Assembly (NCBI GenBank): GCA_965198175.1
Contig: OZ240245.1
Span: 2,365,382 to 2,429,381 of the forward strand
Direction of reading: 5' to 3'
Origin: Candidatus Poribacteria bacterium
GTDB taxonomy: Bacteria; Poribacteria; WGA-4E; PCPOR2b
Length of the DNA stretch: 64,000 nucleotides
Below the pieces are notes generated by a model. That model worked only from the letters and a program-made list of their open reading frames with translations. It searched no databases and was not told the DNA's origin. This document shows positions 806 through 37,985 of the stretch, in pieces; within the stretch, counting starts at the first letter, position 1; every line of letters starts with the position of its first letter. The position numbers were made by a program, and so were the translations under genes.

Positions 806-1552
806 TTAGCGGAAGGTTAAGCCAACTCCAAAGGTAGTATCCGAGTGGTCGAATGAGAATGAAAAAGCCCCGTGGGCGATAACGGAGGGGGATAAGTGGA
901 GTTCCATTCCAATTTGGGCGCCTGTGCTACCTTCATCTTCGCTTTCGTCAAAATCGCGTCGTTTGTCCGTAACCGTTGTCCAAATATGGGTGTACGATAT
1001 TCCAAAGTACGGTGTCAGCTTCATACCGGATTCCGTTTCTATGCGCTTTAAGAGTCCCCCCATGCCGGCAAGCCCCAAAGCCCGTGCACTTTCACGAGTC
1101 TCCGCCCCAACAACTTCTTTGGCGAAACTAGCGCTACCCTCAATTGTGAGAAAGGTATCAAAACCCGTTTGTTGCAACGGGTTCATATACAGGATGCCTA
1201 GTCCAATCGAGGGTGATGGGGGTATTTCGACTCCAGGTCTATAATCCACAGAATCGTCGTCGACAAAACCGATACCGCCAGCGCCGTAGACCTTTGTCCC
1301 AGAATTAATTCCGAATTCGAGGACGCCGCTTATTCTCCGAGAATCTTCCATGAATTGGATGCCGAACCCGTAAGCGCTTTGATCTTTCCCCAACTTCAGA
1401 AAACTGAGTTGGCTGTGTGCAGTCGTGGGATACACCAAACCAATGAGGAATGTAGCGGCAAGCAATAGACAGAATACGGTAAACTCGTATCTTTTGACAG
1501 GAAATTGTTTTCGCACCGGACATCGGTATTTCTTTCTAACCTTGTCTATCAT
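806..1552 (-). CDS. outer-membrane beta-barrel-like protein with signal peptide
   Basis: 248 aa. Basic N-region, hydrophobic h-region (FTVFCLLLAATFLIGLV) and an AHS-Q cleavage-like site. C-terminus ...FGVGLTFR resembles the C-terminus of the convergent neighbour at 125..694. Confidence 0.45.
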   Translation of the reverse strand: MIDKVRKKYRCPVRKQFPVKRYEFTVFCLLLAATFLIGLVYPTTAHSQLSFLKLGKDQSAYGFGIQFMEDSRRISGVLEFGINSGTKVYGAGGIGFVDDDSVDYRPGVEIPPSPSIGLGILYMNPLQQTGFDTFLTIEGSASFAKEVVGAETRESARALGLAGMGGLLKRIETESGMKLTPYFGISYTHIWTTVTDKRRDFDESEDEGSTGAQIGMELHLSPSVIAHGAFSFSFDHSDTTFGVGLTFR

Positions 1553-1842
1553 AGGTTCTCCTCAAAAAAGTGATGGTTTATGATACCACAAGAAGCCCTT
1601 CCGGGCAACACTAAAACTGTGGGCGCCACTTGACGGTGGGTTTTGTCCTCGTGTATAATGGCAGCTGTACACGATCAGTCTTTTTCAAGATGGAAATCAT
1701 TATAGTGGTAGAGGAAGGGCGGAAGAAATATTTCTTGTTCTTTCAATACCTACGTGTTGTTGAATATCTAAACGTCAAGGCGGGCTTGATGCCCCAAGTC
1801 ATTTTCAGCTAAAAACCTTCAGGCTTTCATGAAGGGACGATT

Positions 1843-3522
1843 ATGATGAAATCGTACTCCCGTTTTTCTCAATTCCTGGTGACTCTTGTTTGCTTAAGTT
1901 CATCTTGTTATGCCCATTTTTGGGCGCCTCCCACAAGGATTCACGAATTTGTGAGGAAGTCCGACTTAGTGGTGATTGGAACTGTAGTGAAAGACCAAAG
2001 TGTAATGAATCCAGCGAAAGGCGATGGAGATATCTCGAAGTTATTCATTGGGGCTTTATTTACGGTTCGCGTTGATAAAGTTCTTTATGGAAGGGCGGAA
2101 ATTACACAATCCATTTTCGCCACAAGCGATCTTCAGCGCATTAACTCGACCTTAAAGCGAAATCCAAGGAAAAAGTCTTTAAATATTTATGCCTTTCACC
2201 AGAGTGAGCTGGCATGGGGCTTAGGCATGCCAACATACCGCGAGAATCGACCACAACTTTTCTTTTTCAAGGTCTCAAAGTTCCCAACCAATTTTCCGAG
2301 TAATACCTTGATTTATGATGGTAGTCAGGAGTATGAACGTGAGTCCCAAATACCAACCGTTGCGAGCTTAAAGGAAAAGTTCTATTTTGAAGCGACTTCT
2401 GGAACCGTAGATAGCACATGGGATCTGACGAACAAAAAAGAAAAAGAATGGGTTCCCATTGTTGAAGCCCTTGGTGAAGTGATGTCGGTTCCGGATCTCA
2501 CTCAACGTGAGCAAAAGCTTCGCGAACTACTCAACCATGACGATGTACTGCTCGCCAGTAATGCTGAGGCAGCATTAGGGGAAATCAAAAACGTTAGCGA
2601 TGCAAAGAAAACGCAGGTCGAGCGGAAACAGAACATCAGTGTCGCACAAACACCGGTGAAAGAGAAGCAGATCGATGTAATTACCGATACATCTTCAGGA
2701 GCTTTAAGGGCGGAGAAAGTGACGGTTGATGCGAGAGAAGCGGCTCGCAATCTGCACAATAAAGAGATATTTGACAAAGTCTCTAGAGTTTTGTTTATGG
2801 TTGATGACGCTTATCTCTCCTCTGGCACGGTGAATCTGTTGAAGACTGCTCTAAACGACAACTCTGTTGAAGTTAGGCAGCGCGCAATCCTCTTACTAGG
2901 GCTTTCAAGAAACCCCGAAGCGATAGAAGTTATCTCCAATCGCTTGCGGAACGATCCGTCTTGGCACGTGAAATCAGTGGCAGCGGTGAACTTAGGAATA
3001 CTAGCAGGGGGAGCAGCGGTGCCCGTGTTAAAAGCCGCACTGGTTGAGGAAGAAAAAACTTCGGCGTCATTATCATTGATGTCAAAGATTTCACCGTCAT
3101 TAATTTCTGGATTAGGCAGAGCGGGTGGCACGGCTGTTCCACTGCTGATTGAGAGGTTGAAAGATGACTTAAAATTGGGTGGACATGACGCTAATTTTAT
3201 TATTCAAAGCTTGAAATGGACTGGCGATAGGAGGGCAATTAAGTCCCTTCTCGCTATCATATCACACCCCGCCTCTCCTTCCGACGCGGTCATGAGTGAG
3301 GTACAATTGGACGCAGCGAGAGCCTTAGCGCACTTTGCAACAGATCGGCGCTATGAGGATATCCTGAAGTTTCGCAACAAGTTTGCGGAGGGTTATCCGG
3401 TGACCCCGCGAGAGAATCGGAGAGTCAATGCGTCGGATCGAGCCCGAATCGTTGAAGCGCTTAAAACCGCTGGGTATGACATCAACCGTTTAGCAGAGCG
3501 TGATGTGGTAATTTTTCATTGA
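1843..3522 (+). CDS. exported HEAT-repeat (PBS-lyase-type) protein
   Basis: 559 aa. N-terminal signal peptide (FLVTLVCLSSSCYA). Repeated HEAT-like units (VRQRAILLLGLSRNPEAIEVISNRLRNDPSWHVKSVAAVNLG). The C-terminal ~290 aa is paralogous to the next gene. Confidence 0.6.
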   Translation: MMKSYSRFSQFLVTLVCLSSSCYAHFWAPPTRIHEFVRKSDLVVIGTVVKDQSVMNPAKGDGDISKLFIGALFTVRVDKVLYGRAEITQSIFATSDLQRINSTLKRNPRKKSLNIYAFHQSELAWGLGMPTYRENRPQLFFFKVSKFPTNFPSNTLIYDGSQEYERESQIPTVASLKEKFYFEATSGTVDSTWDLTNKKEKEWVPIVEALGEVMSVPDLTQREQKLRELLNHDDVLLASNAEAALGEIKNVSDAKKTQVERKQNISVAQTPVKEKQIDVITDTSSGALRAEKVTVDAREAARNLHNKEIFDKVSRVLFMVDDAYLSSGTVNLLKTALNDNSVEVRQRAILLLGLSRNPEAIEVISNRLRNDPSWHVKSVAAVNLGILAGGAAVPVLKAALVEEEKTSASLSLMSKISPSLISGLGRAGGTAVPLLIERLKDDLKLGGHDANFIIQSLKWTGDRRAIKSLLAIISHPASPSDAVMSEVQLDAARALAHFATDRRYEDILKFRNKFAEGYPVTPRENRRVNASDRARIVEALKTAGYDINRLAERDVVIFH

Positions 3523-3594
3523 AGCCCTTAAACCGCACAGTATAACATCAATCGTTTAACACGGTGCTTCTAGCTGGTACTCTAATTCGGTTTC

Positions 3595-4533
3595 ATGATG
3601 CGAAGAATTGAGTCTCACCCCATCATTTTTGGTCTGTTATTGTGTTTCATCTGTTGCGCGGTGGCACCTAGTACCCGTGTCGCACAAACGCCGGTGAAAG
3701 AGAAGCAGGTGGATGTGATTACCCTAGACCCACCTCCAGGGGCTTTGGGAAGGGAGAAAGTGACGGTTGATGTGAGAGAAGCAGCTCGCGACTTACGTAA
3801 TAAAGAGATGTTTAAAAAAGCCTCGGGAGTTTTGCATGTGGCTGATAACGCCTATCTCTCGTCTAGCACGGTGAACTTATTGAAAACAGCGTTGAATGAC
3901 GGGTCAGTTGAAGTCAGGATACGCGCAATTAATTTACTGGGAGTTTCAAGAAATCCCGATGCAATAGAGGTAATCTCCAATCGCTTGCAGAACGACCCAT
4001 CTTATCGAGTGAGATGGGCAGCGGCAATTAGCTTGGGGAGGCTAGCCGGGCAAGCGGCAGTTCCCGCATTAAAAATCGCGCTGGATGAGGACAAAAGGAT
4101 TGAAACGGCGGTAATTAATGGGTTAGGATATGCTGGTGGCAAGGCAGTAGCTCTCCTCATCCAGATGTTGAAAGAAGATGGAAAAGAAGGTGGAAACAAT
4201 GCAAATTATTTTATTCAAAGTTTGGAAACAACTTGCGACAGAAGAGCGATTAAGCCTCTCCTCGCTATTATATCGTACCCCACCTCTCCCACCGACCCGA
4301 ATATGAGTCAGGTGCAATTGAACGCAGCGACGGTCTTAGCGCACTTTGCAACGGATTGGATCTATACGCGAATGTTGAAGTCGCGCGACAAATTTTTTGC
4401 GGAGGATTACCCGGCAACTCCGCGTGAGAGCCAACGGGTCAATGCGTCGGATCGAGCCCGGATTGTTGAGGCGCTTAAAACCACCGGGTACGACATCAAC
4501 CGTTTAGCAGAGCGTTTTTGGAGAGTGAATTGA
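3595..4533 (+). CDS. exported HEAT-repeat protein (paralog of the C-terminal part of the upstream gene)
   Basis: 312 aa. Signal peptide (IIFGLLLCFICCAVA). Near-collinear similarity to residues ~265-559 of the 1843..3522 product (VAQTPVKEKQ.DVIT..., VEVR.RAI.LLG.SRNP.AIEVISNRL.NDPS, ...RVNASDRARIVEALKT.GYDINRLAER). Confidence 0.6.
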   Translation: MMRRIESHPIIFGLLLCFICCAVAPSTRVAQTPVKEKQVDVITLDPPPGALGREKVTVDVREAARDLRNKEMFKKASGVLHVADNAYLSSSTVNLLKTALNDGSVEVRIRAINLLGVSRNPDAIEVISNRLQNDPSYRVRWAAAISLGRLAGQAAVPALKIALDEDKRIETAVINGLGYAGGKAVALLIQMLKEDGKEGGNNANYFIQSLETTCDRRAIKPLLAIISYPTSPTDPNMSQVQLNAATVLAHFATDWIYTRMLKSRDKFFAEDYPATPRESQRVNASDRARIVEALKTTGYDINRLAERFWRVN

Positions 4534-4577
4534 ATCACTTTAAAATGCTCAGTCGCTGAATTACCTTAGACTGAACA

Positions 4578-5156
4578 ATGATCCATACCTCACCTTTAAA
4601 AAATTTGTGGTCTATCATGCTACTGTGTGTCATTCTACAGTTCATGGGCTGTTCAGGCAAGTGGGTGGATACGGATGATTTAGTCGGGCTTGACGAAGGC
4701 ATCCAAAGAGCCATCAGAACACCATCTCGTGTCTCTCTCGCCATTGTTTGGAGCGATAAGATCCGGAAGCAATTCGCCCCGGGCTATAAATTTAAATCGC
4801 TCCGTGGGCACCTAAAACAACTTCCCGATGGTAAACGTTGTTGGTATGATGAAAAACAGATCGAATTCCAGATACGTCATAAACAACAAAAATTGCCGAA
4901 ACTTGTGATAGGAACCCATGAGTTATTGCTACGCCTGTCTAACGAGGGCACGAAGGATTATAAAATCCATATCAACGGAGAAAATTGCTATCCGAATAAA
5001 AACGGGGAATGGCATATAATTACGCCATTTACGCGTAACACACATCGGTCCATTGATGCATATTTTCCTGCTATATCCACAGTTTCCATTCAATCTGAGC
5101 AAGGCGTTTGTTTGAGTTCCATCATACTGGTGGATCACGGTATAATGATTAAGTAA
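4578..5156 (+). CDS. hypothetical lipoprotein
   Basis: 192 aa. Signal peptide with a lipobox-like FMGC followed by SGK. No recognisable catalytic motifs. Confidence 0.4.
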   Translation: MIHTSPLKNLWSIMLLCVILQFMGCSGKWVDTDDLVGLDEGIQRAIRTPSRVSLAIVWSDKIRKQFAPGYKFKSLRGHLKQLPDGKRCWYDEKQIEFQIRHKQQKLPKLVIGTHELLLRLSNEGTKDYKIHINGENCYPNKNGEWHIITPFTRNTHRSIDAYFPAISTVSIQSEQGVCLSSIILVDHGIMIK

Positions 5157-5241
5157 AGCAAATCATGTCGTCTTTCGCTAAGTTTGAGAGATGGGGGTAG
5201 TGTAGCTATAGCTAGGTCTTTGGAAAGTAAAAAGGTAAGTT

Positions 5242-6432
5242 GTGCGATGTTCCAGTGGAAATATAGCCAAGTTCTACATCAGCTCAGCACTCGGCGGTTT
5301 TACGTTGTTTCACGGTGTGTTGGGTTTTTACATGAGGCAAATTGGATTTTCGTACACTCAAATCTTCTTTTTAGCCGCTTTATACGAAATCTTGGTATTC
5401 CTTTTAGAAATTCCGACTGGGGTATTTGCAGACCGTTTCGGTCTGAAAAAGAGCGCAGTTCTGGGGCACTTCATATCTGCTGCAAGTTGTTTTCCAATTG
5501 CACTGTTCCCGACATCTTACAGCGTATTCCTTCTTTGGAGTCTGCTGTCGGCAATATGCACTACACTGAATTCTGGTTCGGTAGAGGCGCTACAATATGA
5601 GTCTCTGCGAGATATATCGCGCGAAGCAGAATACACAAAGTTGCGCGGCAGGTTAGCTGCAATTGGTGGGTTTTCAATGCCGGTTGGGGCTTTTATCGGC
5701 GGCACTCTCTGTGGAAACATCGGATTTGGTACAGTAGTCGCTCTTGGAGGGCTAACCGGACTGTTTATTACAGCAGTATTTGTTAGCATGAGCGAACCAA
5801 GGGGGGTTCAACTTGAGCGCGAAAAATCGAAATCCCGAAATACTTTTGAGGCGATAAGCGAAAACTTTCGGTTCATTCAAGGGGATAGGGAATTGACCGG
5901 AGTTATCATCGCTGGATCGATAGTTTATGCAGCGTATCTACTAATCAATAACTATTCGCAGCCGTGCCTGGAAGAGGCAGGTATACAGTCTTATCGAATT
6001 GTAGGCTTGGTTAGCGGGACGCTCATGGTGGTTTTCGCCGTTGTTTCATGGTGGGCGGGATATTTGACTCAACGCATCGGTACAAAAGGCATATTCGTAT
6101 GGTTGTCTGGTGTCCCTATTTTGAGTTTAGTGGGATTGGGAAAACTGAAGGGGATCACACTATTAGCGCCGCTTTATCTCTCCCGATTGGGCGAAGGCGT
6201 TGCCGAGCCCTTCATCTCGAATAGGCTGCTTCAGAAGAGTCCTTTGGGAAAAAGCGCGACACTCCTTTCCACGCAGAGCCTTCTTACATCACTGGTGTTT
6301 TCCATATGGAGCATGGCAAGCGGGTTCGGTCTAGACTATGTTGGACGTTTCTTCATATTTTCTGCAGGTGCAGCATTCGCGCTTATTATATTGTTGTGGG
6401 GCGGCAAATGGGTAGTGCGAACAAACGATTAG
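5242..6432 (+). CDS. MFS transporter
   Basis: About 12 predicted TM segments. MFS motif-A-like GVFADRFGLKKS after TM2. Exact start uncertain. Confidence 0.6.
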   Translation: MRCSSGNIAKFYISSALGGFTLFHGVLGFYMRQIGFSYTQIFFLAALYEILVFLLEIPTGVFADRFGLKKSAVLGHFISAASCFPIALFPTSYSVFLLWSLLSAICTTLNSGSVEALQYESLRDISREAEYTKLRGRLAAIGGFSMPVGAFIGGTLCGNIGFGTVVALGGLTGLFITAVFVSMSEPRGVQLEREKSKSRNTFEAISENFRFIQGDRELTGVIIAGSIVYAAYLLINNYSQPCLEEAGIQSYRIVGLVSGTLMVVFAVVSWWAGYLTQRIGTKGIFVWLSGVPILSLVGLGKLKGITLLAPLYLSRLGEGVAEPFISNRLLQKSPLGKSATLLSTQSLLTSLVFSIWSMASGFGLDYVGRFFIFSAGAAFALIILLWGGKWVVRTND

Positions 6433-6678
6433 AATTCGCAAAGCCAAGTAATTTATTGAGTTAGTATCGCGGGGGTACGTTTTTGATATGTTCTGCAGGA
6501 ACATACATCGGTATTATCGGAAGATTTCTATCACCGAAGAGACGGTTATCCAATTTCGATCTCCCCAAAGGTCGGAAATCGTTGCTCCCAATTTCTCGCT
6601 TCCTGCTTTTGGCGGGAGTTGGAATGATTGCCGTCGTTTTCGTGGCAGCGGGATACGGAAAACAGGAGGAGGAACCAA

Positions 6679-8315
6679 TGATGCATAATGAACAACTAGC
6701 GGGGACATCCAACACGCTGGATTTGGTAGAGCGGGCTGGATATGCGATTAACGCGATGACGCAAAGCACTAATCCGGAAGCGGAGTATGCGGTCTACTTC
6801 ACCGGGGTTCTCCACCGCAATCCGCCAACCCTGTTGAGGGAAATCCCGCTGTATGGCAAATTCATGGAAGGGCTGGCGTTAATGCGCATCATGACAAACG
6901 GCGAATTCGACACACGCCCATCTACTCAACCGAAGGATTTCAATCGGCACGTAGACAAAATTTGGCGTGAAGCGTTTCTACGCAAGCTTAACGGACAGGA
7001 ACTCGGACTAATTGGCGCCGAAGGCGGCAGGCAACTCGCTTGGCTGGCGATACAGTATCGGCAGACCAAAGACTCAATGTGGAAAGAACTCGGCGACTCA
7101 GTGATTCAACAGGCGCTCGAAACGACTATCCATCAAGATGACTACTGCTATTTCCCCCAAGACTCGGAAGGCACAATGCCGTGGAGATGGGGGGCAACCT
7201 ATCAGGGGTGGACGCTTCAAGGCGTGACCCAGTATTATATTGCGACCGGCTCTGAAGCAGCTCTGGAACTCGCGGGCAAACTCGCTCGCTACTTGAAGGA
7301 TCACTCCGGTATTTTTGATACCAACGGGCGGTTTCTTGCACGTCACGACGTAGATGCGCCGCTCAACCCGCCGACTACTCTCGGACCAGCGCTGCATTTC
7401 CATCACAACGGCAATGCGATGGAAGCGCTCTCGGAGTATGCGTGGGCGAGCGGCGAAACGGAATTTGGCGAGTTCGCGAAGAAATGCTATGAATACGCGT
7501 GTTCGCTCCCCGACTCGTCACCGCTTATCGGCTTTTTCCAAGAGTACATTGACGATTGGCCCGACCATCGCGGAGTAATAGACTGTGAAACCTGTTGTGT
7601 CGTTGACATGCTCCTCACAGCGCTTTGGATGACGAAGGCGGGTGTGGGCGATTATTGGGATGATATCGACCGCTACTTGAGAAACCAGTTCGCCGAGATG
7701 CAGATGACCTCCGGCGATTGGCTGGTTCGAATGAGTGAGGAATTACCATATCGGCCGCCGGGGGAGGATGAGGTTGCGATGGGGTCGCCGGACCGTTGGG
7801 TCGGCACCTTCGCCGGGTGGGCGACTGCGAATGACTTCTTCGCTATCGGTGCGGGTCCCGGCATCATGCACTGCTGCACCGGCAACGGGTCACGGGCGCT
7901 ATACTACCTCTGGGAGAACATGCTTGAGTTCAACAACGGGGAGTTACAACTGCATTTACTTCTCAACCGGAAGTCACCCTGGGCAGAGGTCATCAGTTAC
8001 GTCCCGTATCAAGGGAAAGTTGCGTTGAAGGTCAAGGAGGCGTGTGAGAATATTGCGGTGCGAGTACCCGACTGGGTCGAGAGTTCGAGCCTGTCATGCC
8101 TAGTCAACGGCGTCTCCTGCATGCCCAGTTGGAACGGTCGCTATGTGAACATCGGCAGAGCATCGCCCGGAGATACGGTTGAACTCGCGTTTCCGATTTC
8201 GGAACGGACGGTTGAGGAAACGGTGGGCGGCGTTCAATATACGCTTGTGATTAGAGGAAACAACGTAATTTCCATCTCACCACCGGGAAAGAATTATCCC
8301 TTCTATGACCGATGA
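6679..8315 (+). CDS. conserved hypothetical protein, paralog A (CETCC motif)
   Basis: Start placed at ATGATG preceded by AGGAGGAGGAACCA (strong RBS); the six-frame ORF extends upstream to 6483. About 80% identical to paralog B at 8938..10582. Motifs HFHHNGNAMEAL and DCETCCVVDML suggest a possible metal site. Confidence 0.55.
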
Positions 8316-8346
8316 TGTATTTGGAGCTTGCGCGGGCTGGATTCTA

Positions 8347-8523
8347 CAGTCATTTGCATTTATGATTACACATATGAGCGATGATTGACTCGACTTAGCT
8401 CACAATCTCCCGGTTTGCGACGCTTCCCATTGAGCGGGTCGGGCTGGAAGCCCGACCTACGGGAATGGGTGGGAACTTGGATATGTTAATAAATACACGT
8501 GTAATTTTTAGTTGCGTGACTAT
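8347..8523. mobile_element. MITE-like ~178-bp insertion flanked by a TA duplication, absent from the paralogous site at ~10612
   Basis: Aligning the 3' flanks of the two paralog copies gives attcTA[insert]TAaatctt at copy A and attcTAaatctt at copy B. Insert termini cagtcat.../...gtgacta form an imperfect inverted repeat. Internal 9-bp perfect hairpin at 8437..8457. Confidence 0.45.
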
Positions 8524-8937
8524 AAATCTTAGGGGCTTGGGTAGGGGTCAATAGATAAACAGTTACCCTTACAATGTGATCATATCCTAACCGCGTTGTG
8601 TTTGATATGTGCCGTTCAACTTAACCGACGCGCTGAAATCAACTAGATGCGATGAGGCGTTGGCATGACCTTAACAGTGGCGTATCTACACAAGGACTGA
8701 TTTAATCGTGTAGGCGGTCTAATCAGGTCGGGAGATAACGTTAATGTTACATCCTAAAGATACACATATCAGTATTATCGAAAGATTCCAATCTTGGAAC
8801 AGACGGTTATTCAAAATCGGTGCTCCCAAAAGTTGGAAACTGCGGCTCTCAATGTCTCGCCCAGGTGTATTGATGTGGGTGGGTTTGACGGCTGTCGTTT
8901 TCGTTTCGGGCGGCTACGGAAAGCTAAAGGAGGAACC

Positions 8938-10582
8938 AATGATGCAAAATGAACAACTAGCGCAGACACCTGACACACTAGATTTAGTAACACGGGCTGG
9001 ATATGCAATTAACGCGATGACGCGAAGCACGAATCCGGAAGCAGAATACGCGGTCTACTTCACCGGAGTTCTGCACCGCAATCCGCCGACTCTATCGGGT
9101 GAAATCCCGCTATATGGAAAATTCATGGAAGGGTTGGCGTTTATGCGCATCATGACAAGCGGTGATTTTGACACGCGCCCATCTACTCAACCCAAAGATT
9201 TCAACCGGCACGTCGACCGTGTCTGGCGGGACACGTTTCTGCGGCGGCTAAACGAACAGAAGCCGGTGCTTACGGGGCCCGAAGGCGGACGACAGCTCGC
9301 ATGGCTGGCAATTCAGTATCGGCAGACCAAGGACTCAATGTGGAAAGAACTCGGTGAAGCGGCGATTCAACGGGCGCTCAATGCGGCAGTGCATCAGGAT
9401 GACTACTGTTATTTCCCGCACGACGCAGAAGGGACGATGCCGACTAGCTGGGCAGCGACCTATCAAGGCTGGACGCTTCAGGGGGTGACCCAGTTTTATA
9501 TGGCGACCGAATCAGAAGCCGCGCTGGAACTGGCGGGCAAACTCGCACGCTACTTAAAGGATCACGCCGGTGTCTTCGATTCTGAAGGGCGGTTTCTCGC
9601 ACGTCACGACGAATCAATACCGTTCAGTCCGCCATCCAGGCTTGGGCCCGCGCTACATTTCCATCACAACGGCAACGCAATGGAAGCGCTCACGGAGTAC
9701 GCGTGGGCAAGCGGCGAACCGGAGTTTGGCGAGTTCGTGAAGAAATGCTATGACTACGCTCGCTCGCTCTCCGACTCATCACCGCTTATCGGCTTTTTCC
9801 AGGAATACATCGACGATTGGCCCGACCATCGCAGCGTAATAGACTGTGAAACCTGCTGCGTCGTTGATATGCTGCTGACGGCGCTCTGGATGACGAAAGC
9901 GGGCTTGGGTGATTATTGGGATGATATCGACCGATACTTGCGAAACCAGTTCGCCGAGATGCAGATGACCTCCGGCGATTGGCTAACCCGGATGAATGAG
10001 GGGCTGCCATATCAGCCGGCGGGAGAGGATGAGGTTGCGATGGGGTCGCCCGACCGTTGGGTCGGCACCTTCGCCGGTTGGGCGACTGCGAATGATTTCT
10101 TCGCCATCGGCGCAGGGGCTGGCATCATGCACTGTTGCACCGGCAACGGGTCACGGGCGCTATACTACCTCTGGGAAAATATGCTTGAGTTCAATGACGG
10201 GGAATTGCGACTCCATCTACTTCTCAACCGGAAGTCCCCTTGGGCAGAGGTCATCAGTTACGTCCCAAATCAAGGCAAGGTTGAGTTGAAGGTCAAGGAG
10301 ACGTGTGAAAATATTGCGGTGCGCGCACCGGAATGGGTCGAGGGTTCAAGTGACGCCCTATCCTGTCGAATCAACGGCGACGCCCGCAATCTCAGTTGGA
10401 AGGGCCGCTATGTGAACATCGGCAAAGCGTCGCCCGGTGATACGGTTCAGCTTGCGTTCCCAATCACGGAACGAACGGTTGATGAAACGGTGGCTGGTGT
10501 CCCTTACACGCTTGTGATTAGAGGAAACAACGTGATTTCCATCTCACCGCCGGGAAAGAATTATCCATTCTATGACCGATAA
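8938..10582 (+). CDS. conserved hypothetical protein, paralog B (CETCC motif)
   Basis: Start at ATGATG preceded by AAGGAGG. Collinear with paralog A, including the ~200-nt upstream leader and ~100 bp downstream. Confidence 0.55.
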
Positions 10583-10817
10583 TGAATTTGGACCTTGCGC
10601 GGGCTGCATTCTAAATCTTAGGGGCTTGCGTAGGTCCAATATCTAAACAATTACCCTTTCAATGTGATTCAGATTTACAGCATTCCCAAACCGTTATATG
10701 AACAACGACGCGCAACCGACTTTGGTTTTGCGGTTGTCGGATGTTTTCTGAGAGACTCCTGTCGCAATTCGACTTAGTCCTCTGCACTCACTTGAATAAC
10801 GGAAAAAACCGTATCCG

Positions 10818-11123
10818 TCAGCACTTGACTTGGATTTGACCGTCTTCAACGAGGACTTCATAAGATTTCACTTGCAGCCGCACATCTGTCCGGCAGACAC
10901 CGGTTTTGGCATCATACGCGTAGCCATGAACAGGACAGATTGCCAGCCCATTTTTTATGCGTCCTCTGCCCAGCGACCCCAGCGCGTGGGCGCATGTATT
11001 GTTGAGTGCGTAGAAATTTTCTCCGTCGTTGAAAACCGCAATCCGTTTTCCGTTAACGGTGAAGGCTTTGCTTCGTCCGACGGGAATATCTGACGTTTTT
11101 GCAACGGGAGCGTAAGATGACAT
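10818..11123 (-). CDS. Rieske [2Fe-2S] ferredoxin-like small protein (NirD-like)
   Basis: Rieske boxes CAH (C-x-H) and CPVH (C-x-x-H) at the correct spacing. Start trimmed to MSSYAPV, which has a GGAG RBS. About 101 aa. Confidence 0.65.
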   Translation of the reverse strand: MSSYAPVAKTSDIPVGRSKAFTVNGKRIAVFNDGENFYALNNTCAHALGSLGRGRIKNGLAICPVHGYAYDAKTGVCRTDVRLQVKSYEVLVEDGQIQVKC

Positions 11124-11273
11124 CGTAATTCTCCTCTTGTGTTCAGCTTTCATCGGCACTGGAAACATAACAAACTTGTGTGAAACGTGAAGAAACACTT
11201 TGGCGTGCCCTGATTCTACCTTCCCCATTTTACATCGATCTACGACCGATTGTAAAGCAGGAAATTCCTTCTT

Positions 11274-13379
11274 CTACTCGCTCTCGGTTTGTTCATCTTC
11301 CATCTTTTTTACCAGCCGGTCCATTTTCTGAAACTGCCACGTCCATCGGACATTGTATAGAAACTGTCTGAGGTCGAATCGATTGTCGTCGGGTGAATAG
11401 GATTCGGCGTGGTATGAAGGCGTCAACGTTGTCATCTTATGACGGTTGAGTGAATAGTGGTAGAAGAAATACTTGACCTTTGCCGCCACCTCCTGCCGCC
11501 CAAGATGACCCCACTCATGTATCAATTTCTCAAACATGCTCACAGGTCCGCATCGATCAATTTTGCGGAGTCTTCCGAACCGGCTGAGTTCCTGATAGGT
11601 CAGCCCCATGTCCGCTTCGTCCTCTTGCACATACGTTTCGGTGATGGGTTCTAGCTCTGCCGTTGGCGGCGCTTTGAGCACATCGTTAAGAGAAGTGTAC
11701 CCCAGATGCACCGCCGCCCACCGCAAAAACCGGCGAAGATCTGCCTTACTTATTGCGCCAATCGGATTGATGTCTGCGCTGCTGCAGTCGTACTTCGTCA
11801 CGTAGCCACGCAGACTCTCGTCCACATTCGCTGTGCCTAACACCAGCAGTGTCCCGCGTTTGCCGCGCACCCACGGGAGCAGTTGCGCCAATAAATAAGA
11901 GAACACCATGCGCAGGCGTGCTTGGATGTTCTGCAGCGCGGCGTTTTCCGGCACTGACCCGCCGTCTACCTTGAATCGCGGTGTTTTCTGGGTCAGCCGT
12001 ATAAACAGGGAAAGCATTGCGGCGACGATGGAATCGATATTGACGTTCAGGTGGTAAGTTCCGATCTGCCCCGCTAGTTTTTTTGCACGCGCACGTGTCG
12101 TCTCTGAGCTATTCTTGGTCGCCAGATAGCAAGTGCAAAATATTCGGTTGGCGAATTCACGTGCATCTGTCGGGAGATAGTCGCCCGCCTCATCCTCACC
12201 GGCGATACGGCGAGCGTCCCGGATGACCGCACGATTCCCGGCTTTCGCTTCTTTGGCTACCATTTGACACATCGATCCAACCAGCGCAGCGACAGTGGAA
12301 CTATCCGCGCCGCCCGAGATCGGCAGGAAATACCCCGCTGCACCGGAACGTCTCAGATAATCCCATAGCCAACACGCCGGACCATATGCAATTTCTCCTT
12401 CAGGTGTGTGATAGTGGATTTCAATCGGTGGTGATGGTGCAACCCGATAATCCTCTGCGGTAAGGTCGAAATCCACGGCGACTCTCGGAACCGACTCCGA
12501 TTGGCTCGCCTGCACACCACGGCTGGTCTTCGCGCCCCGATAAGAGCGCACATCTTCCAAGTCGAGCGTGGCAGTTACAACTTCGACATCGTTCAGCGAA
12601 AACTGTGAACCCTGCGCCACAATCTCGCCATTGACGGCAATCATCGCGCACCCGTCGAAATAAAGACGACCTCCATCGCAGCCTTGCTGATTCGCATAGA
12701 GATAGATTCCACCGGCTTTTGACGTAGCGCTGCGGATGAGATTCACCCGCTGGTCAAGTTTACGAAGTTCGTGATGTGAGCCAGAAGCGTTGGTGATGAT
12801 CTCAACCCCATTCAAGCTGAGGTAGATATGTGGGCTATTCGGCGCGAAAAGCCCCTCACAGGTTTCTGCGGCTAGCACGGTATCGCGCGTCGCGACCGCA
12901 GCATCCCCGAACGGGACGGTATCCTGACCCGTAATTTCTCGAATCATTCGTGGCAGATAGAAGTCTTCTAGTGTTTTGAGATGCTGCCAAGCTGCGAACC
13001 ACCGCATTTCACGGTAATTTCCGTCCGCCGCCAGAATCGGTTTTGGAAGAATCAGGACAATTTTTCCATCTAGCGCGAGGATGCGGCAGTTGTATCGCAC
13101 ATTCTTGTGCATCACTGGCATCCCAATATCGCAGAGCATCCCTGCTGTCAAATCGCCCTTGAGTATCTCAGCGAGGCATTCCCATGAATGGAGAAATGTA
13201 TCCTGCTCCAGAAAATGATCTTCGCACCCGTAGCCGGAAATCTCCAATTCGGGACCCAGCCGATACCGCGCCCCACTTTCTTTCGCAATCTGGATGGACT
13301 GGGCAATGCGCTCTAAATTGCCTTCAAAATCCATCGCCCATTGGTTGAGATTGCACGTTGCGAGGGTTGCTAATTTCAT
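11274..13379 (-). CDS. nadE: glutamine-dependent NAD+ synthetase
   Basis: 701 aa. N-terminal nitrilase/CN-hydrolase-like domain plus a C-terminal NAD synthetase domain with the PP-loop ISGGADSS. Confidence 0.85.
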
Positions 13380-14661: not shown

Positions 14662-15975
14662 TCAGTCCAACGTACAGGTGCGAAATCCAGCTAACACGTC
14701 TCGTCGCTCGGGTGTGTAGAAGTTCCGCCACGTGTTGCGAAGCATCCGGGATCGGGTTGTCCAGCACCCGCCCCGCAGGGCTTTACGGGTACCAAACCAA
14801 GGTTCGGAATACTCTTTGTATAGGTCAATCTCGAAGCCTGGGTAAGGAAGAAAGCTGCTGCACGTCCATTCCCACACGTTACCAATCATTTGCCGGCATC
14901 CGAAGGCGCTGTCGCCATCTGGAAGGGCGTTCACGTTGATACATCCCATTCCATTCCAATCCAAGTTTGCCTGTGCTGGAGTCGGCGGCTCGCCCCCCCA
15001 GGGGAAGCGTCGTTTCACGGGCGAAAGTCCCTGACCGTCCGGATGCGGTTCCGCGGCGGCAGCTACTTCCCACTCAACTTCCGTTGGGAGTCGGCGCCCT
15101 GCCCAACGACAATAGGCTTCAGCTTCATACCAGTTGACGTGGATGACAGGAAGGTGAGGTTCGAGAGGCGCCCAGTTGTCAAAATGCCGACGCACCCAGC
15201 CGCCATCCGTGTCAAATTGCCAGTAAACTGGATATTCAGCGGCGACCGATTCGCGCCAATCCCAACCTTCAGGACTCCATAGGTCCTTTCGGAGATAGCC
15301 ATCAGCTCCCACAAATGCGGCGAATTCGGATTGGGTGACGGGGACACGCCCAATAGCGAATGGCTTGACATTGACGGGGTGCGCCCATTTCTCGTTGTCA
15401 AACACGAATCCTTCATCCCGCTTGGCACCCAACAGAAACGTTCCTCCGGGGATTTCAACGTCACCGAGAAGCGGACTGTCCATGCCATCTTCAGAGCGGG
15501 ACTTCAGACAACCCGATAATCGGGGCGGAGGATATTCCAGGGTCTGCCGCGTGTAGGTGAACGCTTCGGTGTGCATATCTTCGTGAAAGACAGCGTAGCG
15601 AACGAGGTAGGTTAGCTTTTCACTCGGTTCACTCTTTTCAAGCGTTTCAATAACCGCATCCCGGACTTCGCGCATATACGCCAATGTCTCTTCACGAGAT
15701 GGAATTGACAGCGCCCACCGCGTATCATGCGCGATCGCAATCGAATCCCAGAAGCCGTCAGTGTCGTGGCGAATCGGCTTCTGTTTGCAGCCGTGCCGTA
15801 GAACCCATTTTTCTTGAAACCACGCCACATGCCCAATTTCCCATAGCGGCGGGTTGACGATCGGGAGGTATGGTCCTATTAGTTGCTCGTCGTTTAAATC
15901 GGCGACCAAATCGAAGGTTCGCTGACGGGCATCGTACACCCACTCGGCGAGCTGTGTTGATGTTTCGTATGTCAT
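14662..15975 (-). CDS. EgtB-like sulfoxide synthase family protein (DinB_2 + FGE-sulfatase domains)
   Basis: 437 aa. N-terminal NPPLWEIGHVAWFQEKWV and an H-x3-H-x-E motif (FHEDMHTE). C-terminal FGE-type GGCWTTRSRMLRNTWRNFYTPERRDVLAGFRTC. Confidence 0.55.
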   Translation of the reverse strand: MTYETSTQLAEWVYDARQRTFDLVADLNDEQLIGPYLPIVNPPLWEIGHVAWFQEKWVLRHGCKQKPIRHDTDGFWDSIAIAHDTRWALSIPSREETLAYMREVRDAVIETLEKSEPSEKLTYLVRYAVFHEDMHTEAFTYTRQTLEYPPPRLSGCLKSRSEDGMDSPLLGDVEIPGGTFLLGAKRDEGFVFDNEKWAHPVNVKPFAIGRVPVTQSEFAAFVGADGYLRKDLWSPEGWDWRESVAAEYPVYWQFDTDGGWVRRHFDNWAPLEPHLPVIHVNWYEAEAYCRWAGRRLPTEVEWEVAAAAEPHPDGQGLSPVKRRFPWGGEPPTPAQANLDWNGMGCINVNALPDGDSAFGCRQMIGNVWEWTCSSFLPYPGFEIDLYKEYSEPWFGTRKALRGGCWTTRSRMLRNTWRNFYTPERRDVLAGFRTCTLD

Positions 15976-34273: not shown

Positions 34274-35083
34274 GTGAAAGCCGCATTTAGGAAACTAACC
34301 CTCGTATGCGTAAGTTCTAGTTTTCTTGGGCTGATAATCGCAAGCCCAAGTTATTCCAAAATTAACTCAGAAACCATCGTCGGAATCTGGTTACTTGATG
34401 AAGGTCAAGGAGATATAGCAAAAGACGCTTCTGGCAACGGCCATGATGGAGAGTTCATCGGTTTAAACCCTCAATGGGTAAAAGGCAAGTTCGGCAGGGC
34501 GTTTGAATTTGACGGACAGGATGATTCTGTCCTATTTAATGCCAAAGAACGTCCCGAACACGCTTTTATATTTCATCAGCCGACCGACGCGACATTCCTG
34601 TTTTGGGTGAAAAGACTCACGTTACCTCATGTTGCGATATTCTGGACGAGAGGGGATAACTCCGATAACGGTAGATTTAATGTCTATGCGGGCGCAGGTG
34701 AAAATTTTGGCTTCACTTACAAAGCTGATGATGGAACACCACATGGGATTTTTTCTCGCACAGTTGAACTCCCTTTAAAGGAATGGACGCACTTAGCAAT
34801 AACACGGGAAGGCAATACCTATGTTGCTTACAAAGATGGAATTATAGCGGACGAAACCGTTGATCCAGAACCAGACCTGCCCACAGCTAAAAGATGGATC
34901 GCTTCGGGCAGAGATGGTTTTCTTTTCAACGGCATCCTCGACGAAATTGCCGCGTTCAATGCCGTCCTGAGTGAAGAGGATATTAACAGGATCATGAATG
35001 ATGGACTTGAGAAATCAGCGCTCACTGTTTCCTTGGCTGGGAAACTGACGACAATTTGGGGACAAATAAAGCACGTGGAATAA
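34274..35083 (+). CDS. secreted LamG (concanavalin-A-like lectin) domain protein, array member 1
   Basis: GTG start after AAGGAGG. Signal peptide. LamG_3-like motifs (DASGNGHDGEF, KGKFGRAFEFDGQDDSV, WTHLAITREG, ILDEIAAFNAVLSEEDI). Confidence 0.6.
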   Translation: MKAAFRKLTLVCVSSSFLGLIIASPSYSKINSETIVGIWLLDEGQGDIAKDASGNGHDGEFIGLNPQWVKGKFGRAFEFDGQDDSVLFNAKERPEHAFIFHQPTDATFLFWVKRLTLPHVAIFWTRGDNSDNGRFNVYAGAGENFGFTYKADDGTPHGIFSRTVELPLKEWTHLAITREGNTYVAYKDGIIADETVDPEPDLPTAKRWIASGRDGFLFNGILDEIAAFNAVLSEEDINRIMNDGLEKSALTVSLAGKLTTIWGQIKHVE

Positions 35084-35417
35084 TTCTGGCTTGAAGCTTC
35101 CAGAATAAGGCATCTGAAAATTGCTTAGGAAATATGCACCAAGTTTTGCGCTGTCACAACATCAACAGAGATCCCACAGAAAGTCTAAGCGGCCCCATCC
35201 GCAGCCGAACTCGCGGAAGTCCGAGAGAATGTCCAAATTATTCAAAATTTGCCTTAGAAACCGTCGTCAAGGTCTGGGGATATTCGATTAAGGCAAAGGC
35301 GACGAGGATTTAGATTCTTCTGAGAGCGAGTTGCACGGTGTGATCGCCGGGAATCCCGCTTGGGTCAAAGGGGAGCTGAAGCAAAATAGAACCCATCAAA
35401 ACCAAAGGAGGACAGCG

Positions 35418-36212
35418 ATGCGTGCTTTAATATTCGCGCTTTTGACAATTGCTTTGATTTATGCTTTTTCCTTCACAGCAGAGGCGGCAATCAACCCGGA
35501 AGCTATAGTGCTTTCGTTGTCGTTTGACGAAGGAGCAGGTGAAGAAGCTAAGGACGCCTCCCCACTCGGGAACAACGTGTTTTTCGTTGAAGGGGCGAAA
35601 TGGGGTGAGGGAAAATTCGGAAAGTGTGTACGGTTGAAAAAGACCGCTCACCTAGAGACTGAGATGCCAAACCTTGAGCTACACAATACTGATTTGACGA
35701 TGGCAATGTGGGTTAACTTCGCCGAGGAACCCGGCTGGGTTGCGCTTATGAGTCACGATGAAGGCGCGCAAATAGGCGCGAAAAAATGGGCCTGGTGGTA
35801 TTCGGCCGGCGCGTTCGTTTTCTATATTGATGACGCAGATGAAAAGCGCGAGTGGGTGCGTTCCGATTTCTTTGGGACACCAGAGCTTAATCGGTGGTAT
35901 CACCTCGCGTTTGTCAAGCAGAATGACCTACATACACATTATGTGGACGGTGAACCGTTTGGGGAGGAAGAAAAAAAAGCGCCTGTACCCGAAGCAATTA
36001 TAGGGCCATTATCCATCGGTGCGACAGGTATTAGGTATTTTTTCCAGGGTCTACTGGACGAGGCTTTGATTGTGCGGCAAGCGTTAAGCCAGAACGACAT
36101 CCAGAAGCATCTCGACGGCGGCGTTGACGGAATCCTGGCGGTCGACCCGGGTGGAAAACTCGCAACTAGATGGGGCAGCCTGAAGATGGAACGCAATTTG
36201 TCCGGCAATTGA
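35418..36212 (+). CDS. secreted LamG-domain protein, array member 2
   Basis: Signal peptide MRALIFALLTIALIYAFSFTAEA. Shares the core LSFDEG.GEEAKDAS..GN, AKWGEGKFGKCVRL, LAMWVNF, NRWYHLAFVKQ, FQGLLDEALIV.QALSQNDIQKH and KLATRWGSLKM with members 3-6. Confidence 0.65.
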   Translation: MRALIFALLTIALIYAFSFTAEAAINPEAIVLSLSFDEGAGEEAKDASPLGNNVFFVEGAKWGEGKFGKCVRLKKTAHLETEMPNLELHNTDLTMAMWVNFAEEPGWVALMSHDEGAQIGAKKWAWWYSAGAFVFYIDDADEKREWVRSDFFGTPELNRWYHLAFVKQNDLHTHYVDGEPFGEEEKKAPVPEAIIGPLSIGATGIRYFFQGLLDEALIVRQALSQNDIQKHLDGGVDGILAVDPGGKLATRWGSLKMERNLSGN

Positions 36213-36303
36213 TGGATTAATCCCTCAAATATTCAGTCCACTTCCGGCAAGATGGAAGGGCAATACCAAATTGAAAGCTAATCAGCGGCTAGGGAGGAAA
36301 ACA

Positions 36304-37101
36304 ATGCGTGTTTCGATATCCATGTTCTTAATGATAGTTTCGGTGTGGACGTTTCCATTCGGAGCAGAGGCGGCAATCAACCCGGAAGCTATAGTGCTTG
36401 CGTTGTCGTTTGACGCAGGAGAAGGTGAAGAAGCTAAGGACGCCTCCCCACTCGGGAACAACGTCTTACTCGTAGAAGAGGCAAAATGGGATGAAGGGAA
36501 GTTGGGTAAGTGTGTGCGACTTAAAAAGACCGCTCACCTAGAGACTGAGATGCCAAACCTTGAGCTACACAATACCGATTTGACGCTGGCGATGTGGGTA
36601 AACTTCGCCGAGGAACCCGGCTGGGTTGCCCTGATGAGTCACGATGAAGGCGCTGGATTAAATCTCAAGAAATGGGCTTGGTGGCTTCAGTCCGGTACGT
36701 TCGTGTTCCACATTGATGATGCGATTGAGAAGCGCGAATGGATCCGTTCCGATTTCTTTGGTGCACCGGAACTCAACCGGTGGTACCATCTCGCGTTTGT
36801 CAAACAGAAGGCCCTACATACGCATTATGTAGACGGTGAACCGTTTGGGGATGAGGAAAAAAAAGCACCTATTCCCGAAGCAATTGAAGGACCATTCTCT
36901 ATCGGTGCGACGGGTATTAGGTACTTTTTCCAAGGCTTGCTAGATGAAGCATTGATCGTAAAGCAGGCGTTGAGCCAGAACGACATTCAGAAGCATTTCG
37001 CTGGCGGCGTTGCCCGCATTCTAGCAGTGGAGCCGGGTGGAAAGCTCGCAACCAGATGGGGCAGCCTGAAGATGGGACGCGGCTATTCTTACGGTCAATG
37101 A
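36304..37101 (+). CDS. secreted LamG-domain protein, array member 3
   Basis: Close paralog of member 2 (about 85% aa identity). RBS-supported ATG at 36304. Confidence 0.65.
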   Translation: MRVSISMFLMIVSVWTFPFGAEAAINPEAIVLALSFDAGEGEEAKDASPLGNNVLLVEEAKWDEGKLGKCVRLKKTAHLETEMPNLELHNTDLTLAMWVNFAEEPGWVALMSHDEGAGLNLKKWAWWLQSGTFVFHIDDAIEKREWIRSDFFGAPELNRWYHLAFVKQKALHTHYVDGEPFGDEEKKAPIPEAIEGPFSIGATGIRYFFQGLLDEALIVKQALSQNDIQKHFAGGVARILAVEPGGKLATRWGSLKMGRGYSYGQ

Positions 37102-37184
37102 AGCAATATCCCAAGAAATTCAATCTGCTTCCAGCGACTTGGCGGGTCGATTATCAATACATCCACGACAATAGAGTGACAATA

Positions 37185-37985
37185 ATGCGTGCTTCGAGAT
37201 TCATATGTTTAACGATTGCTTTGGTGTGGGCTCCTTCCTTCAGTGCGAATGCGGGAATCAATGCGGACGCAGTTGTGCTCGCGCTGTCGTTTGACGAAGG
37301 AGAGGGCGAAGAAGCCGTAGACGCATCTCCAAAGAGAAACGACGCAACTCTGGTACAGGGCGCTAAATGGGGTGAAGGAAAGTTTGAAACATGCGTCCGT
37401 TTAAAAAAGATTGCCCATGTAGAGGTTGCAAACCATCCAACCCTTGATTTGCACGACACTGACTTTACGCTGGCAATGTGGATGAACTTTTCCGACGAAC
37501 CCGGCTGGTATAACCTGATGGCACACAGTGAGGGGCCTGGAGGAGATGATAAGAAGTGGTTCTGGATGTTCTCTGGCGGCAAGTTCAAATTCCACATCTT
37601 TAACCCGGGAGGCGAGCTAGTGTGGATAGATTCCGACTTCTTTGGGTTCCCTGAGCTTAACCGTTGGTACCACCTCGCCTTGGTCAAGCAGGGTGACCAG
37701 TACAGTTTTTTTCTGGATGGCGAACTGTTCGGGGAATCAGTAAAAGACTTGCCTGTTCCCAAGGAGATTAACAACGCTCTCACCATTGGATGGTCGCAAG
37801 AAGATCGCTATTTTCAGGGCCTTCTAGATGAGGTGTTCATTGTGAAACAGGCACTGACCCAAGACGATGTCCAAAGGCATCTATCCGGTGGCATCCAAGG
37901 GATTTTAGCTGTCGAACCCGGTGAGAAGTTTACGACCAGATGGGGTAGCTTGAAGATAGGACACGGATTGTCCAATGACCGATGA
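37185..37985 (+). CDS. secreted LamG-domain protein, array member 4
   Basis: Paralog with signal peptide MRASRFICLTIALVWAPSFSANA. ATG at 37185. Confidence 0.65.
   Translation: MRASRFICLTIALVWAPSFSANAGINADAVVLALSFDEGEGEEAVDASPKRNDATLVQGAKWGEGKFETCVRLKKIAHVEVANHPTLDLHDTDFTLAMWMNFSDEPGWYNLMAHSEGPGGDDKKWFWMFSGGKFKFHIFNPGGELVWIDSDFFGFPELNRWYHLALVKQGDQYSFFLDGELFGESVKDLPVPKEINNALTIGWSQEDRYFQGLLDEVFIVKQALTQDDVQRHLSGGIQGILAVEPGEKFTTRWGSLKIGHGLSNDR

Follow-up and report, generated by a model that had tools for sequence, protein, structure and literature searches.

Does the conserved stretch of ~200 nt before each member of a tandem gene pair in the genome of a sponge symbiont, Candidatus Poribacteria, act as a regulatory RNA, or does it encode the beginning of the protein? 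The pair lies in a window of 64,000 nt (i.e. positions 2,365,382 to 2,429,381 of contig OZ240245.1, assembly GCA_965198175.1; coordinates are those of the window except where a locus L is named), for which a sequence-only reading had proposed that each copy is preceded by an untranslated cis-regulatory leader, such as a riboswitch or attenuator. The analyses described here indicate that the leader, 195 nt in length, is most likely a translated protein start and not regulatory RNA, and that the two genes most likely encode precursors of 610 and 612 aa with a predicted Sec-type signal or membrane anchor. The overall explanation, that these are tandem glycoside hydrolase (GH) precursors of the GH127/GH146 type whose translated targeting region descends from a twin-arginine translocation (Tat) signal, is considered probable.

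The tandem duplication itself was borne out. Two neighbouring genes on the same strand exhibit 81–88% DNA identity and, counted from the ATG next to the Shine-Dalgarno (SD) sequence, copy A spans 6678–8315 (+, 545 aa) and copy B 8939–10582 (+, 547 aa). These ATGATG starts are each one base off those first reported (i.e. 6679 and 8938) whilst the stops, 8315 and 10582, are as reported. Local alignment paired 6501–8346 of copy A with 8762–10613 of copy B, with 83.6% of positions identical in a block of 1484 nt and 84.8% in one of 257 nt. A repeat search agreed, with values of 72% for 6477–6599 against 8738–8860, 82% for 6609–6908 against 8870–9169 and, in the 3′ part, 85% for 8090–8346 against 10357–10613. 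Mismatches between the copies cluster at third codon positions, which account for 32 of 47, 73 of 114 and 42 of 60 differences in three segments. Upstream homology covers exactly 195 nt before each ATGATG (6483–6677 versus 8744–8938; 68% identity, no net gap), and identity directly 5′ of 6483 and 8744 falls to 24%, the random level. The strong ribosome binding sites noticed earlier were confirmed, with an SD-like AGGAGGAGG at 6664–6672 and AAGGAGG at 8927–8933, 5 nt before the first ATG. The protein motifs HFHHNGNAMEAL and DCETCCVVDML were found in both copies.

Both upstream regions are open in the frame of the gene for exactly 65 codons, and each opens with a start codon, TTG at 6483 and ATG at 8744, where the homology begins. 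The long open reading frame (ORF) of copy A (6483–8315, +, TTG start, 610 aa) was identified from the ORF list, and Pfam, AlphaFold2 (AF2) and Foldseek point to a precursor of a GH127/GH146-like cysteine glycosidase; that of copy B (8744–10582, +, ATG start, 612 aa) was supported by the ORF list, Pfam PF07944 and public annotation, in which the 612-aa protein is already present (exact match P0121). Maintenance of the extension was assessed for 14 distinct copies from seven Poribacteria assemblies, including three complete chromosomes of metagenome-assembled genomes that each carry the same tandem pair (L001–L003; loci L001–L011 are all from Ca. Poribacteria) and metagenome scaffolds with two or more copies (L029–L031). 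No stop codon was observed in frame 0 of any of the 14 copies, as compared to 67 and 17 stops in frames +1 and +2. Extensions were only ever 195 or 201 nt long, a 6-nt difference that is a multiple of three, and the first column was a start codon in every copy (8 ATG, 5 TTG, 1 GTG). With at least 562 substitutions along the minimum spanning tree of these copies, the probability of the frame staying open under random substitution is ~3e-10. Neither neutral decay nor a non-coding RNA predicts such a maintained frame, length and start column.

Selection on the extension was weak at the level of codons. Pairwise ratios of nonsynonymous to synonymous substitution (dN/dS) were 0.45–0.98 for the extension as a whole, with values of ~1 for codons 2–38 and mostly 0.2–0.9 in the hydrophobic part, as against 0.07–0.18 for the enzyme body. 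In a neighbour-joining tree all tandem copies form one clade, hereafter the window clade, which is sister to single-copy Poribacteria genes bearing Tat signals. The signals of this sister clade (MHESKQNNRKPDSSISRRRFLMMAGTGVIAFVVPPASDG...) served as a positive control and exhibited dN/dS of 0.3–0.8, indicating that weak codon-level conservation is normal for targeting peptides. The window-clade extension nevertheless accumulates nonsynonymous changes 2–3-fold faster than the Tat signal of the sister clade does. The sequence-only reading had allowed that its leader might prove to be a longer N-terminal coding extension with codon-level conservation; that is largely what was found, in that an in-frame ORF runs from 6483 and 8744 and is open in 14 of 14 copies, although the accompanying conservation of codons is only weak. 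A start codon nearer to the hydrophobic segment was considered and rejected, as no such position is a start codon in all copies; in the second copy of L001 (L001_2) there is no start codon at all between −135 and the SD-proximal ATG.

The leaders of copy A (6483–6677, +) and copy B (8744–8938, +) can each be read as 65 in-frame codons of an N-terminal targeting region, made up of a charged n-region and a hydrophobic segment. The segment of copy A, FLLLAGVGMIAVVFVAAGY (residues 40–58; 6600–6656, +), has a mean Kyte-Doolittle (KD) hydropathy of 2.36 over a 19-mer and is flanked by a charge of +4 over the 12 residues before and −3 over the 12 residues after; the segment of copy B lies at 8864–8920. 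A hydrophobic 19-mer was present in all eight copies measured (KD mean 1.55–2.39), preceded by a net charge of +2 to +5 and followed by one of 0 to −3. All eight thus show the features of a Sec-type signal peptide or type II signal anchor, namely a charged n-region, a hydrophobic core and positive-inside asymmetry. Application of the −3/−1 rule makes VAA|G and VSG|G plausible signal-peptidase cleavage sites.

Homology to Tat signals was apparent from alignment. The hydrophobic segment FLLLAGVGMIAVVFVAAGY aligns with the h-region of the sister-clade signal, SRRRFLMMAGTGVIAFVV, and over a longer stretch the window translation LPISRFLLLAGVGMIAVVFV aligns with SISRRRFLMMAGTGVIAFVV of the sister signal. 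Chloroflexi homologs carry Tat plus lipobox signals (e.g. SRRDFLKIVAVVFGSGIASAC). As in these sister-clade and Chloroflexi signals, the window clade has a charged n-region followed by an h-region at the same position, with recognizable similarity (ISRFLLLAGVGMIAVVF versus ISRRRFLMMAGTGVIAFVV), but it lacks the twin arginines (RR), its n-region of ~38 residues is nearly unconstrained, and its hydrophobic segment exceeds theirs both in length and in hydropathy (KD 1.55–2.39 versus 1.41–1.47). The motif S/T-R-R-x-F-L-K is absent from the window copies, which read ISRFLLL and MSRPGVL, and the window N-termini gave no match to the TAT_signal or TIGR01409 hidden Markov models (HMMs) even at E = 10. 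Sister and Chloroflexi N-termini scored 16.4 and 15.1 bits on the TAT_signal models, near the cut-off of 16.7.

Tat signals are redirected to the Sec pathway when they lose the RR motif and become more hydrophobic. The first 65 codons would accordingly specify a long, poorly conserved, positively charged n-region and then a hydrophobic segment of ~19–20 residues, a targeting region that appears to descend from the Tat signal still present in the single-copy sister clade and in the Chloroflexi homologs. By losing RR and gaining hydrophobicity, the window-clade signal may have become either a Sec-type signal peptide or an anchor with its N-terminus inside and its C-terminus outside. Such a signal or anchor would place the enzyme outside the cytoplasmic membrane, by an export route and with a cleavage step that we infer from these features. 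A lineage-specific sorting tag was also entertained for the n-region and rejected; a search of the other genes of the window and of the loci located the n-region only upstream of these GH genes.

Several observations weigh against a translated targeting region. Ratios of ~1 across the n-region (codons 2–38) would reflect selection on openness only and not on sequence, and AF2 gave no confident helix for residues 1–76. For the upstream start, the best SD on offer is weak and G-rich (GGGGG or GGGAGA, 7–8 nt upstream), whilst a near-perfect SD and ATG, kept in all copies, lie 195 nt downstream of it. Gene callers are split three ways, between the long ORF, an ATG in the middle of the hydrophobic segment and the SD-proximal ATG. 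In the annotation of the source genome, copy A is a protein of 563 aa that begins at ATG 6624, within the hydrophobic segment, whilst copy B begins at 8744 and has 612 aa, and the annotation of other assemblies uses the SD-proximal start (543–548 aa).

The alternative that survives best assigns a function to both starts. Under dual initiation, a low-level long form would be exported or anchored, whilst the internal SD and ATG (6664–6683 and 8927–8944) would act as a second and perhaps dominant start for a cytoplasmic protein of 545 or 547 aa. In copy A this possible second start consists of AGGAGGAGG, a 5-nt spacer and ATGATG at codons 66–67 (6664–6683, +), and in copy B of AAGGAGG (8927–8933) and ATGATG (8939–8944) on the same strand. 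A GAGG followed by ATG or GTG at 5–8 nt is kept in 14 of 14 copies, and all 14 use GAG for the first Glu of the motif, although the genes prefer GAA (22:17 and 25:12). Within the extension, conservation is highest in the ~30 nt around the motif (dN/dS mostly 0.07–0.3 in comparisons with the window copies), which encode a linker that AF2 predicts to be disordered. Real genes in the window use GGAGG, many gene callers pick the SD-proximal ATG, and a Met occupies the same column in the Tat-bearing sister clade. Against this, constraint on the protein sequence KEEPMM is an alternative cause of the conservation, the first copy of L002 (L002_1) has ATT GTG and a weaker SD, and the synonymous-site evidence amounts to one or two codons. 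Dual initiation is therefore viewed as plausible but less likely than not, and a cytoplasmic isoform starting at 6678 or 8939 would be judged about as likely or slightly less so. If it were correct, the tandem genes would supply the same Zn-cysteine glycosidase to two compartments. A broader proposal, in which each gene has two conserved starts (an upstream ATG or TTG for a membrane-targeted precursor with a degenerate signal of Tat descent, and a strong internal one, just beyond the hydrophobic segment, for a cytoplasmic enzyme) and the clade, with its two domains, its HFHHNGN/ETC/CC signature and its 13–15% identity to solved GH127/GH146 structures, perhaps represents a GH family of its own that acts on a substrate peculiar to sponge or algal glycans, is considered unlikely.

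In the sister clade (L004–L011, L017, L022 and L024), a Met that follows a purine-rich, AAGGGGA-like stretch shares the column of the internal start (ERKGTTIMPTEPE); in these loci it is found ~30 nt upstream of position 6001. The internal start may therefore predate the loss of the RR motif.

A second alternative holds that the signal peptide has been lost altogether, leaving the SD-proximal ATG as the sole start of a cytoplasmic enzyme and the 195 nt as a decaying, formerly coding 5′ untranslated region. Loss of the RR motif, the n-region dN/dS of ~1, the 2–3-fold higher nonsynonymous rate relative to the sister-clade Tat signal and the strong SD at the internal ATG all fit such decay. Decay should however produce stops and frameshifts, and no stop was seen in 14 copies despite at least 562 substitutions (P ~3e-10); lengths differ by just 6 nt, the first-column start codon is kept in 14 of 14 copies, and the hydrophobic segment and its charge asymmetry are kept in all eight copies measured. 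This explanation is very improbable.

The weakest explanation is the one originally proposed, an untranslated riboswitch or attenuator, which is now scarcely credible for an ORF that is kept open in every copy, as would not be expected of a non-coding leader. The region resembles such leaders in being a conserved stretch of ~200 nt 5′ of a strong SD, it was duplicated along with the gene and is recognizably conserved (68%), a local hairpin (GUUUUCG...CGGAAAAC) directly 5′ of the SD could form base pairs in 91% of cells, and a U/C-rich stretch is able to pair with the SD. It differs from them in having an in-frame ORF and no conserved structure, covariation, Rfam family or terminator. An Rfam scan of 6300–11000 gave no matches at E values up to 1. 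Single-sequence folds of the two leaders had z-scores of −0.27 and −1.78, no better than shuffles, with structures that differ between the copies, and RNAalifold on eight leaders yielded a negligible consensus (−6.8 kcal/mol, covariation term −1.09). The covariation analysis that the sequence-only reading had suggested for the leaders and homologous loci was run on 14 sequences for two candidate helices from RNAalifold. One is the hairpin of 9 bp that lies 5′ of the SD, the other an anti-SD pairing (UUUCUC:GAGGAA). The two helices pair in 91–93% of cells but did not surpass column shuffles (for one helix 146/500 and 95/500, for the other 500/500 and 464/500), and they show essentially no compensatory change. 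No terminator-like sites were found within 6483–6677 or 8744–8938. A sigma-70 scan detected no site near either start, and gave fewer sites than shuffled sequence, hence was uninformative. Only 50 nt separate the end of the preceding gene from the long ORF of copy A. Comparison of copies A and B shows 32% differences in the leader and 12–19% in the coding body, an approximately twofold greater divergence of the leader, whilst synonymous divergence is alike in leader and body (dS 0.58 versus 0.62). A riboswitch aptamer would change far more slowly.

The sequence-only reading had left the protein family unassigned, had guessed at a metal centre from the clustered Cys, Glu and His residues, and had recommended profile searches and AlphaFold; these placed the proteins near a known family with a metal site. 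By profile alignment and structural model, both genes are predicted to be remote GH127/GH146-type cysteine glycosidases. Matches to Pfam PF07944 and PF20736 (i.e. the GH127 catalytic and middle domains) were weak and just above cut-off; for PF07944 the scores were 25.9 and, for copy B, 30.3 bits against a cut-off of 24.9, and just positions 50–167 of the 376 in the profile were covered. The NCBIfam model for aceric-acid hydrolase, with a cut-off of 950, scored 19.5. Names given to some homologs are ‘glycoside hydrolase family 127 protein’ (NCBI) or ‘DUF1680’. A HMMER profile of 63 sequences matched the GH146 structure 5OPJ (best, E = 8e-4) and the GH127 structure 4QJY, with the CC motif aligned. 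The AF2 model (predicted local distance difference test, pLDDT, 84; predicted template modelling score, pTM, 0.84) is confident from residue 77 on and has an (alpha/alpha)6 barrel followed by a beta-sandwich. The top 21 Foldseek matches in the PDB are all GH127 or GH146 enzymes (E = 1e-15 to 4e-13; 13–15% identity; template modelling (TM) score ~0.5), and GH76, the fold class that follows, trails by nine orders of magnitude (E ~1e-6).

The predicted active site was examined using canonical GH127 genes taken from plasmids, numbered as in HypBA1 from their PDB alignment, and hhalign against the family profile. The two profiles aligned with a probability of 97.2% (E = 3e-11) and with the ETC and CC motifs in register, E369-T-C371 corresponding to E338-T-C340 of HypBA1 and C464-C465 to C417-C418. 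HypBA1 has a Zn(Cys3Glu) centre with C417 as the nucleophile (PMC10728902). In 63 homologs E369, C371, C464, C465 and E354 are invariant, whilst C368 and C372 of the CETCC motif vary. The guess of a metal centre thus held, in that the E-T-C and C-C motifs align with the zinc site of HypBA1 and are invariant in the family. In copy A, CETCC is encoded at 7584–7598 (+), with E369 and C371 as predicted Zn ligands from hhalign and invariance, and C464-C465 at 7872–7877 (+), where HMMER, hhalign and invariance predict a catalytic nucleophile and a Zn ligand. In copy B, CETCC (9845–9859, +) and the CC pair (10133–10138) were read from the sequence in the same register, at an offset of 2261. HFHHNGN (H305–N311; 7395–7415, +) has F306, H307 and N311 invariant and H305, H308, N309 and G310 at ≥90% among the 63 homologs; it lies near H270 of HypBA1 in the profile alignment, in an uncertain register. 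The invariant E354 (7542–7544, +) is a candidate acid/base residue, 15 residues before E369 as compared to 16 between E322 and E338 of HypBA1. Two results count against the family assignment. Neither phmmer with the protein nor hmmsearch with a 187-residue active-site sub-profile gave matches in the PDB, and hhalign sets the E322 column at F351, beside a 2-residue gap and three positions from E354, leaving the acid/base Glu ambiguous.

Residues 77–610 would thus form an (alpha/alpha)6 catalytic barrel and one beta-sandwich of the GH127/GH146 kind. The protein would act as a retaining cysteine glycosidase, an enzyme whose Zn2+ is coordinated by a Glu and three Cys and so positions one of these Cys to serve as nucleophile. 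E369, C371, C464 and C465 are the predicted ligands, with C464 corresponding to C417 of HypBA1. By analogy, the putative substrate is a terminal beta-L-arabinofuranoside-like sugar on algal or sponge glycans, and the adjacent transporter of the major facilitator superfamily (MFS) would be a plausible importer.

Likeness to solved enzymes is clear in fold and motifs and slight in sequence. With the GH127 enzymes HypBA1 of Bifidobacterium longum (3WKW/3WRE) and Ara127N of Geobacillus (4QJY), the window proteins share the barrel followed by a beta-sandwich, the ETC and CC motifs aligned to E338/C340 and C417/C418, and matches above cut-off to PF07944 and PF20736. They differ in that structure-based identity is 13–15% with a TM score of ~0.5, no single-sequence HMMER match was obtained and the position of the acid/base Glu is uncertain. 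As the hhalign alignment spans just template residues 199–545 of 656, and the window protein is no longer than 610 aa, the third, C-terminal beta-sandwich of canonical GH127 enzymes has no counterpart in it. Further differences are the N-terminal targeting region and the family-specific motifs HFHHNGN and DYWDD..RNQ. For GH146, BT0349 (5OPJ/6YQH) and Bll3HypBA1 (8K7X) were found by Foldseek (E = 2e-14; query TM score, TMq, 0.55), and 5OPJ is the best profile match, with CC aligned. The cysteine-nucleophile chemistry of GH146 is the same as that proposed for the window proteins (PMC10728902), but the GH146 enzymes exceed 770 aa, have extra domains and share 12–15% identity.

The duplication and the metal site put forward by the sequence-only reading therefore stand, and the regulatory RNA does not. 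A conserved stretch before a strong SD is not always a leader RNA, and a plausible misreading has been corrected; here the stretch appears to be a fast-evolving targeting peptide in which selection acts on the reading frame and not on the sequence. GH127 enzymes are reported to be enriched in sponge symbionts (PMC8163846), and the inconsistent public annotation, with three starts for one gene family, changes the predicted location of this class of enzyme. The genes belong to an ordinary but divergent enzyme family of a known kind, a deep and uncharacterized branch of the cysteine glycosidases in Poribacteria, Chloroflexi, Armatimonadetes and others, with an apparent switch from Tat to Sec or an anchor and with variation in copy number. 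The family is of use for the discovery of carbohydrate-active enzymes and for the study of export-signal evolution, and no new kind of system is indicated.

The history of the pair was reconstructed from the related loci. As tandem copies occur in all seven assemblies, the duplication would predate the split of the sampled related assemblies, and it appears to be younger than the loss of RR; in the neighbour-joining tree, copy-1 and copy-2 lineages are common to several genomes. The 3′ halves of window copies A and B and of both L002 copies are 88–92% alike and the 5′ halves are less alike, which suggests gene conversion between the copies. Copy number also varies. Locus L029 has at least three tandem copies (1237–6075), of which copies 2 and 3 have identical upstream regions. 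The protein P0001, from a Joint Genome Institute (JGI) contig of 2899 nt, is an A/B chimera in which residues 1–350 are nearly identical to copy A and residues 351–565 match copy B (cf. 6624–10582); it represents either a deletion variant produced by unequal crossover in the population or a collapsed assembly.

The gene upstream of the pair encodes an MFS transporter (5242–6432, +; Pfam MFS_1, E = 5e-23). A gap of 50 nt separates it from the long ORF of copy A, and it is likely to be in the same operon as copy A. The pair lies between this transporter and a Rieske/NadE gene pair in the window, L001, L030 and L031. L003 has these flanks too, although its MFS gene is followed by a gap of 2 kb, and in L002 no MFS gene lies within 6 kb upstream. 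An extra 590-aa gene with a signal peptide and no Pfam match is present between the MFS gene and the pair in L030 (880–2652). Neighbours in the window (1843–4533, 10818–13379 and 14662–15975) encode two adjacent HEAT-repeat proteins, a small Rieske protein that adjoins a 701-aa glutamine-dependent NAD synthetase (CN_hydrolase plus NAD_synthase), and an FGE-sulfatase/DinB protein.

Homology of ~100 bp downstream of each gene, as had been noticed, is real, yet it is split in copy A by an insert of ~176 nt. The first part of the copy A flank (8316–8346, +) falls within the 85% repeat (8090–8346 against 10357–10613) and the second (8523–8592, +) resumes beyond the insert, with 96% identity between 8523–8545 and 10612–10634 and an alignment that reaches ~8592 and 10692; together they match the flank of copy B (10583–10692, +), which is also homologous to the flank after copy 2 in L002. 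The insert (8347–8522, no strand assigned) is highly structured (fold z-score −2.5), with a GC hairpin, GGGTCGGGCTGGAAGCCCGACC, at its centre and inverted repeats, which are imperfect, at its ends (AGTCA...ATTACAC). Neither the flank after copy B nor L002 contains the insert, and the GC hairpin is unique in the window and absent from 31 loci. From these features, the insert may be an element resembling a miniature inverted-repeat transposable element or a terminator structure.

A second tandem array is present elsewhere in the window (34274–37985). It comprises four paralogous ORFs of ~270–310 aa whose N-termini resemble signal peptides. A GGAGG SD precedes every one of them, and similarity is high between copies 2 and 3.

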